Below, piece by piece: positions 17,750-22,408 of a DNA stretch of 64,000 nucleotides. The first letter of the stretch is position 1. Each line of letters starts with the position of its first letter. Under the pieces are notes generated by a model. That model did no database searches, was not told where the DNA came from, and worked only from the letters and a program-made list of their open reading frames with translations. The stretch comes from a virus. Lineage: Duplodnaviria; Heunggongvirae; Uroviricota; Caudoviricetes. The DNA lies in IMG/VR virus record IMGVR_UViG_3300013936_000013, positions 13,246-77,245 of that record. The stretch is one strand, 5' to 3'. The position numbers were made by a program, and so were the translations under genes.

Positions 17750-18113
17750 TTTTATTTCCTTTCTCTGTATCAACTGCTTTTTTCATGCTGTCTTCAAGCT
17801 CATGTGCCCCAGTCAGCTGCTCTAGTACTGTATAAAAGTGCATTTTTTCATTACTTGCCCATCGTCTCCACCATAGAGGGTCTGTATTTGGCTCGATAGG
17901 ATCTCTAGGCTTAAGGCGCGCTAACTCATCAACAGCCGCAGCATATCTAAAATAGATACTATCAAATCCAAAAGCAAGTCTTTCTGCAACCAGCTTTCGA
18001 TGCACTTCTTTAGGAATAGTTACATTTGGATTTTCTTCTCTCAATGCTTCCGCAAACTTTTCATAATTTTCAAGGAGTTCATTAAATTCAGGATTGGTAG
18101 TTCTTTCGTTCAT
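17739..18113 (-). CDS. Hypothetical protein (124 aa)
   Basis: ORF track; AAGGAG RBS. Confidence 0.7.
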   Translation of the reverse strand: MNERTTNPEFNELLENYEKFAEALREENPNVTIPKEVHRKLVAERLAFGFDSIYFRYAAAVDELARLKPRDPIEPNTDPLWWRRWASNEKMHFYTVLEQLTGAHELEDSMKKAVDTEKGNKNGT

Positions 18114-18717
18114 TTTTCAAAATCTCCTTTGCTTTTACCCAATTCGTCTCAATAGCTCTTGTCATTGAATTTTCAACCTTAATTTGACAAGCCCTCATGG
18201 CACTAAGTGCGGTAGTATGGCTTACAGGAGTAACACCAGCACAGCAATAAGCATCTACAATGATAGGCACATTAGGCATTTCTGCCTTCAGCAGCATTGC
18301 ATTACTGATAACGCAAATATCAGTGCAAACACCAATCAAAGTAATACTCTCAATATCAAGCCCGCCAAAATCAGAATTATAGCTCCAAATATACTCACTT
18401 TCAGGATTAAAATATTCCATCAAACGAGTTGAACCAAAAGTAGGCTTGTCAAAAGTATTATCTTCAGTCACAAAAGGCTTCAACTCATCAATAATCTCCC
18501 AGCCTTCGGTCTGATAAATACAATGCGGAACAGGTAGGTTCTTGCCTTCTTGAGTCTCAAGGTAGTTGTCGAAATGGGTGTCGCGAGTGAAGAAGACAGC
18601 TCCATCCCAATTCTTTACTTTATCAACAACCGCAGGTACAATCTCTCTTGCTTCTGGCGTACCAAGACAACCAGTAATGAAATCATTCTGCATATCTACA
18701 ACAATAAGAATTTTCAT
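18088..18717 (-). CDS. pncA: Nicotinamidase (isochorismatase family)
   Basis: IVVDMQNDF (catalytic Asp), TRDTH and PHC metal ligands, FDKPTFGS, GVCTDICV (catalytic Cys). Confidence 0.9.
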   Translation of the reverse strand: MKILIVVDMQNDFITGCLGTPEAREIVPAVVDKVKNWDGAVFFTRDTHFDNYLETQEGKNLPVPHCIYQTEGWEIIDELKPFVTEDNTFDKPTFGSTRLMEYFNPESEYIWSYNSDFGGLDIESITLIGVCTDICVISNAMLLKAEMPNVPIIVDAYCCAGVTPVSHTTALSAMRACQIKVENSMTRAIETNWVKAKEILKNERKNYQS

Positions 18718-18729
18718 ATTAAACCTCTC

Positions 18730-19491
18730 TTAGTCCCAATTACAATTCGGATTATACATAGGCATCGGCAACAGCTTAAAAGTATTAGCATTATGCATCT
18801 TATCAATGCGGGCGGCAGTAGCTGTATCGTTACCAAAATCTCCAGTTCGGATGTAGCGGTCAAGGAACTGATAAGTAAAACCGAAATTATCTTCATCACT
18901 CTTATCAGTCAGACCATCCGCAGGAATCTTCTCAATAAACTTCTTAGGAAGACCCAGCTCATAGCCAATCTGCTTAACTTCAGTGACAGTCAACTTACCC
19001 AGAGGACTAAACTGACCTGCGCCATCGCCAAACAAAGTTGCCCAACCAACATAATCTTCAGAATAATTACAAGTATTAGCAACTCGACCATTCACGCTCT
19101 GAGCAACCATAAACAGAGTTGCCATACGAAGGCGGGCAGGCAGGTTAGTAGCAGCATTAGAGCTAAGTTTAATATCATTAGCCACAAGTTCCTCAGTCAG
19201 ACTATCATAGGCTTCGCCAATATTAATATCCATATAATCAATATCAAGATACTCACAAATCTCTACCGCAATATCGCTGTCCTTCATGGTATCATTAGGC
19301 ATAATTACGCCAAAGACTCTGTCCTTACCAAGAGCTTCACAGCACAGTGCCGCAACGATGGTAGAGTCCTTACCGCCGCTCATACCTACGACCGCATTGC
19401 AATCAGAGCCATTCTTACGGAAATAGTTACGAATCCAAGTAACAATCTCATCCTTAGTCTTCTTAGCATCAAAACTATAAGGTCTAATCAT
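18730..19491 (-). CDS. nadE: NH3-dependent NAD+ synthetase (no glutaminase domain)
   Basis: VVGMSGGKDST PP-loop, NLPARLRM, VANTCNYSE, GWATLFGD, LTVTEV, SDEDNFG; 253 aa. Confidence 0.92.
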   Translation of the reverse strand: MIRPYSFDAKKTKDEIVTWIRNYFRKNGSDCNAVVGMSGGKDSTIVAALCCEALGKDRVFGVIMPNDTMKDSDIAVEICEYLDIDYMDINIGEAYDSLTEELVANDIKLSSNAATNLPARLRMATLFMVAQSVNGRVANTCNYSEDYVGWATLFGDGAGQFSPLGKLTVTEVKQIGYELGLPKKFIEKIPADGLTDKSDEDNFGFTYQFLDRYIRTGDFGNDTATAARIDKMHNANTFKLLPMPMYNPNCNWD

Positions 19492-19547
19492 ATTTCTTAA
19501 TCTCCTTTATTTATCTTATAATTTATTATACCATATTTTTTATAAAA

Positions 19548-19581
19548 ATAAAAGGGTAAATTATTTAATTTACCCTTTTAT
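19548..19581 (-). terminator. Intrinsic terminator between macrodomain gene and nadE, overlapping the nadE promoter
   Basis: ATAAAAGGGTAAATT...AATTTACCCTTTTAT with a T-run on the minus strand; TGGTATAAT -10 at about 19525-19533. Confidence 0.7.
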
Positions 19582-19586
19582 ATTAT

Positions 19587-20045
19587 TTAATCTAGTTTCC
19601 AGAGTTCACAATGGACATCCTTAAAAATTTCTTCAATCATAGGTTCAACGACGCTCCAATCTGCGCCTCCCCGCACACAACCAATCTTATAAGGCATAGC
19701 TACTTTACTATTGTCCTGTTTAGCGATTGCGGCAACCGCAGATAGTGCGAGCTTTAGAGCTTTGATATTTGTGTACTGCCCGCCATCATAGCCATAATTA
19801 TCTTGAGCAAAACAATTTACAATGGTTCTATTAGGTTCAACCTTAATAAACTGAGCCTGACCAAGTAAAGAGGTTCCTAGCCCTACTGACCGCTCCCAAA
19901 GACTCATATATTCCCAATAAACATCAGGATAGCGTTCTCTAACTTCTTTAGCAACGCCGCTTGCCATCTTACCTTTACAATTCACCTGATGACAAATATA
20001 TTTTGCATCAGTATCAAAAACATTACCAGTTTTAATTTCTACCAT
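19587..20045 (-). CDS. Macrodomain ADP-ribose hydrolase (Poa1p/DarG/TARG1-like)
   Basis: GNVFD, ICHQVNCKGKMASGVAK, IVNCFAQ, AMPYKIGCVRGGADW. Confidence 0.88.
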   Translation of the reverse strand: MVEIKTGNVFDTDAKYICHQVNCKGKMASGVAKEVRERYPDVYWEYMSLWERSVGLGTSLLGQAQFIKVEPNRTIVNCFAQDNYGYDGGQYTNIKALKLALSAVAAIAKQDNSKVAMPYKIGCVRGGADWSVVEPMIEEIFKDVHCELWKLD

Positions 20046-21556
20046 TAAAATGCGTATCCCTTTCCATTTTTAATGCTCTTAAAAGTATTCAAAGTCTCTC
20101 GAACATTCTGCAGAGTCTGCTCTTCAACCATCTGGCTATTGCGATAAACAGGATCAAGCCAATTATAAGATTCAATAGCATCCCACTGCTCCTGATTCAA
20201 TCCGTCCTGATAAATAAAATGTCCTTCCTTAGTATCAAAACTTACATTACACAGACCCTTAAGACTCTTCTTGAAATTGTCAATATCAGTTTTAGGGTTC
20301 TTAAAGATAGGAACTTCTTTGCCATTAATGATTCCATAGGTTGCCTTAACCGCCATACCAAAAGTGTCACGAGTAAAAGGCTTCAGGGCTCCATCCTGCT
20401 CAATGCACTGCATAGAAAAAGAACCAACACCAAGACTAACATTATTGGCGGCAAAGCCCTTACTCTCCAACTCCTTATAAATAGCTTCACACCGCTGGAT
20501 AGTAATAGAATCACCGTACAGAGCCTTTACATGAGAATCAAGAACTTTATAACCCTTGCTATTAATGGTTCCGCCAAAAATATCCCACAAATGATAAACA
20601 GTCTGAGTGACAATATCAATAGGATTACCAGAATCACCACGAATCAATAGGGTGCCATCATGATTCATAATTTCGTCCTTTAACTGCGGCAGAATGTTAT
20701 CAACCATATTCCAATAGTCATAAGAATCAGAAACCATAGAGAAGCTAGAATGCGGGTACAGCTGAGTCAGCGCACGACGGACAAAAGAAATCTCATCTCC
20801 ATCAACCGCCGCATTAGAACACATAACACTATGTTCGGTACTAATTGCACCAAACGCCACAGGCTCTTTAGAACAGTCGCAATTATACATTTTCTCAAGG
20901 TAAGGAATAGCAGGAACAGTTGCAGTATTAAGAAAGCTCAAGCACCAACCCGCACTAGACTTAATTGCGGATTGCATGCACTCCTGACCGCGGAAACTAA
21001 AATCACCCAGAGCTCTTGCATGAGGAACATTATCTTCAACAGTCATGTCGTAATACTTATCGACAATATCACGATACAGAGAACCAACTGTGGCAGAAAT
21101 CATAGGATGCCACAACTCAGAACTCATAAAAGACTCCAGAAACTGCGGAACCCATGCAAAATCAGGATGAGTATTGCTCATTTCAAGGAAAGGCACGTGA
21201 ATAGGGCACAGAGAACCTTCGGGCAGAGCACGAATTTCAACAGGCAGATAGCCCAAATCATGCAGAGCCATAATCTTATTAATATCATACGCGGTAGAGC
21301 CAAGGGTATTATCAAGCACGTGCTGATATTCCTTCTTTACCTTATCCGCAGGCTGATTAAAGAAATTCTCATTAAAGTAATCAATCAGATAGTTCTTACA
21401 AAAAGCCTGAATGCCAAAGACGACAACACTATCAACACCGTCCAGACGACTCATTCGAGGAGTAAAATAGCTCACCAGCTTAGTAGTGCCTTCAGGGAAC
21501 TGCTGGGCATGAGTAGTCTTATAAAAATCACACATCAGCATAGGATTAATATTCAT
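20045..21556 (-). CDS. NAMPT-fold phosphoribosyltransferase (nicotinate- or nicotinamide-using; Namat-like candidate)
   Basis: CDFYKTTH, GDFSFRG, STEHSVM, VSDSYD, IRGDSG, YGDSIT, TRDTFG, K-S-KG motifs; 503 aa; TAA overlaps next ATG. Confidence 0.9.
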   Translation of the reverse strand: MNINPMLMCDFYKTTHAQQFPEGTTKLVSYFTPRMSRLDGVDSVVVFGIQAFCKNYLIDYFNENFFNQPADKVKKEYQHVLDNTLGSTAYDINKIMALHDLGYLPVEIRALPEGSLCPIHVPFLEMSNTHPDFAWVPQFLESFMSSELWHPMISATVGSLYRDIVDKYYDMTVEDNVPHARALGDFSFRGQECMQSAIKSSAGWCLSFLNTATVPAIPYLEKMYNCDCSKEPVAFGAISTEHSVMCSNAAVDGDEISFVRRALTQLYPHSSFSMVSDSYDYWNMVDNILPQLKDEIMNHDGTLLIRGDSGNPIDIVTQTVYHLWDIFGGTINSKGYKVLDSHVKALYGDSITIQRCEAIYKELESKGFAANNVSLGVGSFSMQCIEQDGALKPFTRDTFGMAVKATYGIINGKEVPIFKNPKTDIDNFKKSLKGLCNVSFDTKEGHFIYQDGLNQEQWDAIESYNWLDPVYRNSQMVEEQTLQNVRETLNTFKSIKNGKGYAF

Positions 21557-21574
21557 AAATTTTATACCTCTCTT

Positions 21575-22408
21575 TTAAATTCTGCAACTTGCAATCATAC
21601 TCTGTTCTGCGGGAAAAATAAGAATATTTGCATTTCGTTTAGTAAGAATACTATCAGTAGTATAAACAACATCAATTAATCGTTCATCAGTAAAGATTTT
21701 ACCCTTATTCCCATCAAGAATACTATCTTCACAGTGAGTAACATACATATCAATGTCTCCTGCGCCGGCAGCCTTTAGAGCCTTAGCGCTATAATACATA
21801 GTCCCGCCATAAGCACAAATGTCATCAATCATCAGGACTTTTGGACGAATCATTGTTTTTAAAATGTCTTCTCCAACAACCTTAAGCCCCTTAATTTCGC
21901 CAGTATTCCAATCACGAATTTTATCTCCATGCAGAACAGGTTTATCACAGCACTGATGGATTGCGGACTCATAACGCTTCATAGCTCCTGCATCTGGGAA
22001 ATAAATAACGTCAGCACTGCTACAAATAATAGCTTTCTTAATTGCATTAATGGGCTGATAATTAATACAATTATCAAGTAGTCCAACGGATACGTCACTA
22101 TGAGCATCAAGCACATGAATCTCTGCGAAACCCACAGCATTTAACATTTTTGCAAAATACTTAAGAGTAAAAATATCCCCCTTATGAACTCTATCCATTC
22201 GAGCATTAGGGATATAAGGCATATAAAGAACAGGTTTGTATCCGCGGCTCTTCATATACTCGCCAATCATACAAACGATAGGAAATTCGCTCATTTCATG
22301 ATAATGCCAACTAACAACACCATCCATTGTCATAGAAGGATTTTCCTTCAAAAGAGGGGTTCTATCAGGAAACTGACCAATATCAATACCTCGTGTGTAA
22401 ATCATCAA
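21575..22408 (-). CDS. Ribose-phosphate pyrophosphokinase family protein (Prs / Adps-like)
   Basis: MPYIPNARMDR, LDAHS, FPDAGA, KIRDWNTG, IDDICAYGGT, VTHCE, TTDS. Confidence 0.9.
   Translation of the reverse strand: MMIYTRGIDIGQFPDRTPLLKENPSMTMDGVVSWHYHEMSEFPIVCMIGEYMKSRGYKPVLYMPYIPNARMDRVHKGDIFTLKYFAKMLNAVGFAEIHVLDAHSDVSVGLLDNCINYQPINAIKKAIICSSADVIYFPDAGAMKRYESAIHQCCDKPVLHGDKIRDWNTGEIKGLKVVGEDILKTMIRPKVLMIDDICAYGGTMYYSAKALKAAGAGDIDMYVTHCEDSILDGNKGKIFTDERLIDVVYTTDSILTKRNANILIFPAEQSMIASCRI

Follow-up and report, generated by a model that had tools for sequence, protein, structure and literature searches.

Why would a phage that encodes the means to rebuild nicotinamide adenine dinucleotide (NAD+) from nicotinamide also encode a nicotinamidase? 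The question is raised by a 64,000-nucleotide stretch of a gut-type phage (positions 13,246 to 77,245 of IMG/VR record IMGVR_UViG_3300013936_000013; hereafter the window), where 18088-22408 holds a head-to-tail series of five minus-strand genes encoding an Adps-like protein, a transferase of the Namat family, a macro-domain protein, NadE and PncA. NAD+ depletion is among the commonest bacterial antiviral strategies. Of the ways in which phages respond to it, the NAD+ reconstitution pathway NARP1 is the most frequent. NARP1, composed of Adps and Namat, has been described in phages SPbetaL1, Bas63 and ICP1 (Osterman et al., bioRxiv 10.1101/2024.02.11.579819), and structures of its proteins have been reported (PMC12774641; PMC13586617). 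An original prediction, made from the letters of the window alone, had listed a contiguous prs-like gene, NAMPT-fold phosphoribosyltransferase, macrodomain, terminator and promoter, nadE and pncA. We found all of these at the predicted positions on the minus strand, with the genes as follows:

22408-21575, minus: Adps-like gene of phosphoribosyl pyrophosphate (PRPP) synthetase (PRPS) fold, 277 aa; phrog_619, E 1.6e-58; start TTG at 22408 or ATG at 22405
21556-20045, minus: Namat-family NAMPT-fold phosphoribosyltransferase gene, 503 aa; PF04095 and PF18127; phrog_448, E 9e-164
20045-19587, minus: macro-domain gene, 152 aa; PF01661, E 2e-4; phrog_335 "phosphatase", E 1.6e-35
19491-18730, minus: nadE gene, 253 aa; PF02540, E 3.5e-51; TIGR00552, 173.6 bits
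18717-18088, minus: pncA gene, 209 aa; Pfam Isochorismatase, E 1e-23

The start of the macro gene overlaps the Namat stop codon. The module resembles NARP1 in its adjoining Adps/Namat pair, the Namat core, the R40, F392 and TRD residues of the adenine clamp, the catalytic lysine and acceptor residues of Adps, and the lack of an adenylyltransferase. It differs in two pocket residues (Asp215 to Ala and Ala242 to Ser), in an insertion in the clamp together with loss of Y396, and in its PncA and NadE companions. The NARP papers that we consulted do not mention PncA, NadE, nicotinic acid or nicotinic acid adenine dinucleotide (NaAD), and our full-text literature searches found no nicotinate or NaAD version of NARP1. 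From the evidence below, we consider it likely that the module uses a nicotinate route.

A Namat-family transferase with an altered pyridine pocket

The best PDB relatives of the transferase were 9w5x/9w5w (E 6e-131) and 9ke8 (7e-96), with human NAMPT at about 1e-47; the residue numbering of 9w5x agrees with that of the SPbetaL1 Namat paper (PMC12774641). By sequence relationship, the transferase is a Namat and not an ordinary NAMPT, in keeping with the kinship that had been claimed for it. The crystal structure of Namat places F189, R192, D215, A242, R306, D13' and Y15' in the nicotinamide pocket, where D215 hydrogen-bonds nicotinamide and the D215A substitution lowers NAD+ formation 8.1-fold (PMC12774641). 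Alignment of the window motif LSFLNTATVPAI with LSFTGTDTIPAI of SPbetaL1 Namat put Ala212 at the D215 site, the same alanine codon that the original prediction had placed at the Asp219 position of NAMPT (20921-20923). Within the pocket residues listed above, the window protein differs only at D215 and A242, and its catalytic core (F189, R192, H245, R306, D308) is intact. The two changed codons are:

20923-20921, minus: Ala212 codon (Namat Asp215, human NAMPT Asp219), from alignments
20842-20840, minus: Ser239 codon (Namat Ala242, a nicotinamide-pocket residue), from alignment

In human NAMPT, Asp219 sets substrate specificity (Khan et al. 2006, as cited in PMC7096376), and the D219S mutant is listed as one that "switches substrate affinity" (Khan et al. 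2006, as cited in PMC4919578 Table 2). The same aspartate is replaced in the phage proteins, and one phage subclade naturally has serine there; D219S, however, was made in the laboratory and works with PRPP as donor, and the window protein has alanine. The human D219S enzyme reportedly accepts nicotinic acid. The second change, A242S, may compensate for alanine at the Asp219-equivalent site.

Nicotinamidase and NadE accompany the altered pocket

We collected Namat loci from deposited phages and IMG/VR. A protein-level search was necessary because the module had no megablast match among 50,697 deposited phage records. The Namat and PncA of the window, a small alignment and the SPbetaL1 Namat served as the four queries, and each locus was scored with profiles for the five module proteins in a neighbourhood of 8 kb. 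This sampling followed the queries and was not random, with some contigs retrieved repeatedly; the alignment-based viral scan returned only close relatives, and the Asp-type loci came from the SPbetaL1 query. The 220 Namat loci obtained in this way comprised 179 with Ala or Ser at the D215 site (165 Ala-type and 14 Ser-type) and 41 with Asp or Glu, and these two groups were separated completely by their neighbours:

Ala or Ser at the D215 site, 179 loci: both PncA and NadE within 8 kb in 172, neither in 0
Asp or Glu at the D215 site, 41 loci: both PncA and NadE within 8 kb in 0, neither in 41

The remaining 7 Ala/Ser loci had one of the two genes and lay mostly at contig ends. Clustering at 85% identity gave 60 clusters, 35 Ala/Ser and 25 Asp, with the same split. 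The linkage to PncA and NadE held at 36-94% identity and across at least eight gene orders, such as PncA-Adps-Namat-NadE and PncA-Namat-NadE-Adps. In Phass-1, a TAG-recoded (code 15) gut phage, the order is PncA-Adps-Namat-140-aa protein-NadE (L002, OQ749652.1 96860-101298). The Phass-1 module sits within a large tRNA array in which a suppressor tRNA is also encoded, and two of its genes are annotated merely as hypothetical. Two other loci (L178:5621-8524 and L177:7929-13134) carried PncA-Adps-macro(-NadE) with no Namat detected in the fetched stretch; these modules may be degraded or rearranged.

The aspartate of the NARP1 pocket was missing throughout the clade, with Ala or Ser at the D215 site in 35/35 Ala/Ser-clade clusters and 0/25 Asp-clade clusters. 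The A242 site was equally divided, being Ser in 35/35 and Ala in 25/25 clusters of the respective clades. Positions that separated the clades fully or nearly so, in Namat numbering, included H187 to Gly/Ser/Ala, G213 to Asn/Lys, S239 to Gly, H207 to Trp/Phe and R299 to His in addition to D215 and A242. Four of these (H187, G213, D215 and A242) correspond to H191, G217, D219 and A244 of human NAMPT, and the clade-specific changes therefore cluster at the pyridine site; mutation of H191, G217 or A244 in the human enzyme blocks inhibitor binding (PMC4919578 Table 2). In a maximum-likelihood tree with the NARP2 transferase NadV as outgroup, the Ala/Ser proteins formed a single deep clade (Shimodaira-Hasegawa-like approximate likelihood ratio support, 96) and sister to the SPbetaL1 Namat clade. 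The phylogeny that had been called for thus places the Ala/Ser clade within Namat.

Phage modules with PncB and NadD provide a natural control

A transferase that made a mononucleotide from nicotinate would need an adenylyltransferase, such as host NadD. The original prediction had reported none in the window, and our search for a nadD or nadR elsewhere extended this to the whole parent record: no PF01467 adenylyltransferase was found in the complete 141,245-bp genome (CheckV completeness 100%), in a search that matched 14/14 control genomes. The canonical PncB N-domain (PF17767, NAPRTase_N) likewise had no match in the complete genome, with 8/14 control genomes matched. Nor did Phass-1 or two more relatives of 100% completeness have an adenylyltransferase. 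Three PF01467 matches in two larger incomplete relatives were set aside, two being CoaD-like and unrelated to NAD and the third a weak NMNAT-like protein distant from the module.

Some phage loci recovered with the PncA query have PncA and NadE without Adps or Namat, and between those two genes they contain a canonical PncB (NAPRTase plus NAPRTase_N) and a NadD/NadM-type adenylyltransferase (L126, L127, L176, L186), and an adenylyltransferase was carried by all four untruncated PncB-type modules seen. The coordinates of these Preiss-Handler modules (PncA, PncB, NadD/NadM-type, NadE) are:

L126:4899-8522
L176:6274-12367
L186:6248-9345
L180:7959-10309

Adps and the Namat variant therefore fill the PncB and NadD slot in the frame of the module. 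Alternation of the two pairs is what would be expected if Adps and the Namat variant make NaAD from nicotinate without nicotinic acid mononucleotide (NaMN). The PncAs of the two kinds of module are related (about 50-57% identity), and in a PncA tree the PncB-type proteins were scattered among the others. With 10/57 branches well supported this tree is poorly resolved, and it is suggestive of the two kinds of module having swapped parts. Clusters of pncB, nadD and nadE have been reported in gut jumbo phages (PMC11662467); the two ends of the pathway, PncA and NadE, are shared with our module, and the PncAs are related, but here PncB and NadD are replaced and the ADP-ribose moiety would be recycled instead of being built from PRPP and ATP.

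Two side observations concern these loci. A microbial-type PARG lies just upstream of the L176 Preiss-Handler module. In addition, a DUF5662 protein recurs within or beside both PncA/PncB/NadE and PncA/Adps/Namat modules (L126:6053-6772, L176:9275-9823, and likewise L020, L021, L088, L144, L148 and L180), and it may be an unrecognised NAD-related component. DUF5662 had no match in the window genome, in a search that also matched 0/14 control genomes.

The other four proteins of the module

The Adps-like protein and the SPbetaL1 Adps region share 36% identity (tblastn). F18, R87, H121, D161, K185, D212 and D213 of ICP1 Adps, for which the catalytic Lys185 and the acceptor residues have been defined (PMC13586617), were invariant in an alignment that included SPbetaL1 Adps. 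The protein did not reach the curated cut-off of any NCBIfam Prs model (best, 75 versus 113 bits), and it lacks the C-terminal helices of PRPS. A PDB sequence search did not return the ICP1 Adps structures and gave only weak matches to canonical PRPS (E 1e-8). No single residue cleanly distinguished Adps from PRPS in an alignment with the ICP1 and SPbetaL1 genes, and the label Adps therefore denotes family membership and context. We propose that this PRPS-fold protein is Adps-like and would catalyse ADP-ribose (ADPR) + ATP to ADPR pyrophosphate (ADPR-PP) + AMP.

The macro protein is 35.6% identical to a "putative phosphatase" adjoining prs in Vibrio phage RYC and 38% identical to Bacillus phage proteins labelled "ADP-ribose 1''-phosphate phosphatase related". 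A macro-domain gene of this type was present in 71/106 loci tallied, all of them Ala/Ser type. The published NARP1-AP operon of Vibrio phage Gary has the order Adps-Adpp macro phosphatase-Namat, and its Adpp, a Poa1p-like macro-domain ADPR-1''-phosphate phosphatase, counters RES-type (aRES) NAD+ phosphorolysis (bioRxiv 10.64898/2026.01.28.702374). The window operon likewise contains a macro protein of a "phosphatase" PHROG, which we liken to the Gary Adpp by family and context, but its order is Adps-Namat-macro and NadE and PncA are extra. The macro protein is thus probably an Adpp that would convert ADPR-1''-phosphate to ADPR. An Adpp-type macro domain is useful only with ADPR as substrate, and its presence therefore supports an ADPR-based pathway. 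The original prediction had the macrodomain feeding in ADP-ribose; the gene does belong to the operon, and by the published Adpp activity the step would be a phosphatase reaction.

NadE scored 173.6 bits against TIGR00552 (cut-off 63.65), has the SGGxDS P-loop (GMSGGKDST) and is a single-domain protein lacking a glutaminase domain. It is by these features an NH3-dependent NAD+ synthetase, predicted to convert NaAD, NH3 and ATP to NAD+, as had been anticipated. The closest solved structures to PncA were nicotinamidases (Pyrococcus horikoshii 1ILW/1IM5, 1.6e-10; yeast Pnc1; M. tuberculosis PncA). The triad D8-K91-C135 and the metal site D46/H48/H65 were aligned and conserved, completing the nicotinamidase residue signature. 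Because of these relatives and residues, the isochorismatase-fold protein is a credible PncA, and the predicted deamidation of nicotinamide to nicotinate and NH3 is a credible reaction for it.

A proposed nicotinate pathway

Defences of the SIR2, TIR and SEFIR types cleave NAD+ to ADP-ribose and nicotinamide, and RES enzymes produce ADPR-1''-phosphate. In the scheme that we propose, the macro protein (Adpp) would remove the 1''-phosphate where needed, and Adps would pyrophosphorylate the resulting ADPR to ADPR-PP. PncA would convert nicotinamide to nicotinate, which the Namat variant, with Asp215 changed to Ala and Ala242 to Ser, would join to ADPR-PP to give NaAD and pyrophosphate. The NH3-type NadE would then amidate NaAD to NAD+, possibly recycling the ammonia released by PncA. 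We lean slightly toward this full scheme, a nicotinate-type ("deamidated") NARP1-AP with ADPR-PP as donor. The nicotinate side of the deamidated route in the original prediction is now supported by the linkage of 172/179 against 0/41, whereas we still infer the use of both nicotinate and ADPR-PP by the Namat variant and the counter-defence role.

The original prediction had proposed a five-enzyme variant of NARP. NARP1, the macro add-on of NARP1-AP and the phage PncB-NadD-NadE clusters are all already published, the Adps-macro-Namat combination as NARP1-AP; only the nicotinate detour is new. The module shares phage-encoded NAD+ restoration with NARP2 (NadV NAMPT and NatV NMNAT, in KVP40 and VCPH-type phages) and NARP3 (PnuC and NadR) (PMC13464706). 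Those systems, however, use amidated intermediates (nicotinamide mononucleotide and nicotinamide riboside) and an adenylyltransferase, which is absent here, and the window transferase is far from NadV in the tree. We regard as evenly balanced the broader proposal that the Namat variant is a nicotinate ADP-ribosyltransferase, a reaction known in no organism, which with PncA and NadE would form an adenylyltransferase-free pathway, widespread in gut phages and interchangeable with PncB and NadD.

Several observations weigh against this scheme. Independent origins of the Asp to Ala/Ser change were sought in the Namat tree and only one was found. Because the Ala/Ser proteins form one clade, the linkage represents one never-reversed event and not repeated convergence, and no independent-pairs test is possible. 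Human NAMPT D219A, which matches the window residue, is classed as loss of activity and not as a substrate switch (PMC4919578 Table 2), and we found no paper describing the reaction of nicotinate with ADPR-PP to NaAD. The remaining points concern the phosphoribosyl or ADP-ribosyl donor, and they are best considered together with the alternative that they favour.

PRPP or ADPR-PP as the donor

The alternative that survives best, although we think it unlikely, is ordinary Preiss-Handler salvage, in which PncA supplies nicotinate, the Prs-like protein makes PRPP, the NAMPT-fold enzyme makes NaMN from the two, host NadD adenylylates it and phage NadE completes the pathway, the macro domain being an unrelated ADP-ribose-processing or anti-defence add-on. 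The complete pncB-nadD-nadE clusters of gut phages offer a precedent, and the substrate switch of human D219S NAMPT also has PRPP as donor. In Namat, an adenine "selectivity clamp", formed by R40 of a loop and by F392 and Y396 in the motif GSx.x.x.TRD, favours ADPR-PP over PRPP, and the R40/F392 double mutation lowers ADPR-PP-dependent activity 16.6-fold (PMC12774641). SPbetaL1 Namat nevertheless still accepts PRPP in vitro, for which the clamp is not required (PMC12774641), and the clamp itself is modified in the Ala/Ser clade. In the clamp helix of the window protein (20369-20413; its residues about 382-396), a 9-aa insertion between GSFSMQC and TRD breaks the GSx.x.x.TRD motif, and Y396 is lost, aligning with Pro, with Phe immediately before TRD. 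Because the clamp helix is altered, the preference for ADPR-PP could be weaker. The insertion ranges from 9 to about 40 residues among Ala/Ser-clade Namats, and the deep-branching Phass-1 Namat has none.

Hints of an NaMN intermediate came mainly from the Ser-type subclade, whose Namats lack R40. An NMNAT-like gene lay inside the module in 7/14 Ser-type and 2/165 Ala-type loci; these genes are archaeal/NadM-type and under curated cut-offs (L030:12213-12788, L225:14002-14652, L091:5258-6037, L157:10240-10818). Their presence fits an NaMN intermediate at least in those loci, and the Ser subclade may work via NaMN or via both routes.

Against PRPP as the donor for the window enzyme, R37 (R40 of Namat), F389 (F392) and TRD are retained, the first two being the residues whose joint mutation so reduces activity with ADPR-PP. 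The transferase is nested within the Namat clade beside experimentally verified Namats, and its partner is an Adps-family protein that fails every curated Prs threshold. Macro genes of the Adpp type are found repeatedly within the operon. Finally, four complete Ala-type genomes have no adenylyltransferase, in contrast to the four untruncated PncB-type modules, each of which has one.

Independent add-on or metabolic provisioning

A second alternative, which we consider improbable, is a standard NARP1-AP acting on nicotinamide, to which PncA and NadE were added independently to boost the host PncB/NadD route in parallel. The macro gene and nadE are separated by 95 bp, in which there are signals that would be compatible with such an arrangement:

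19581-19548, minus: terminator-like hairpin 3' of the macro gene, 15-bp stem and T-rich tail, from a pattern match
19533-19525, minus: extended -10-like element TGgTATAAT, from a pattern match
19507-19502, minus: AAGGAG ribosome-binding site upstream of the nadE ATG (19491), read from the sequence

The hairpin and promoter-like element divide Adps-Namat-macro from NadE-PncA, maybe into two transcription units, and an intact catalytic core together with the activity left in D215A Namat would allow continued use of nicotinamide. In many relatives, however, PncA lies directly upstream of Adps in a single gene string. PncA would also destroy the substrate of such a Namat, both variable nicotinamide-contact residues are switched in all members of the clade, and the absence of PncA and NadE from the surroundings of all 41 Asp-type Namats is unexpected if these genes are independent of the pocket change.

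Outside the window, the phage has a gene for an NAD+-dependent DNA ligase (G000:C1:101553-102251; PF01653, E 5e-51), and phage replication itself therefore needs NAD+. Metabolic provisioning, in which the module raises NAD+ for such phage enzymes in every infection and not specifically after depletion, would agree with this ligase and with the interpretation given to phage NAD genes in PMC11662467, but it is hardly probable against the facts that the substrates of Adps and Adpp, ADPR and ADPR-1''-phosphate, are products of NAD+ cleavage and that published NARP1 makes NAD+ only following depletion, and it is in any case a question of purpose and not of mechanism, compatible with the deamidated route.

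Genomic setting of the module

The sole close deposited relative was MT835544, an unannotated gut contig; Phass-1 is distant. Within the window, GC skew switches sign at about 24 kb, negative before and positive after, and the coding strand switches too; the NAD module sits close to the start of a leftward gene block. On the minus strand at 23622-23594 there is a strong promoter-like site (TTGATA-17-TATAAT with TG), and three small open reading frames of unknown function (23565-22405) are found between it and Adps.

Implications

If the nicotinate-type scheme is true, synthesis of NaAD from ADPR-PP would be a new enzyme activity for NAD+ biochemistry, and two pocket residues would be seen to shift the specificity of a NAMPT-fold enzyme from the amide to the acid. 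The exchange of PncB and NadD for Adps and the Namat variant would offer a natural experiment for pathway engineering. For the phages themselves, the scheme raises the question of whether host nicotinamidases or nicotinamide-removing defences pushed them off the amidated route, and it would account for a set of human-gut phage genes, annotated as prs, NAMPT, nadE and pncA, that is highly abundant but has lacked an interpretation.

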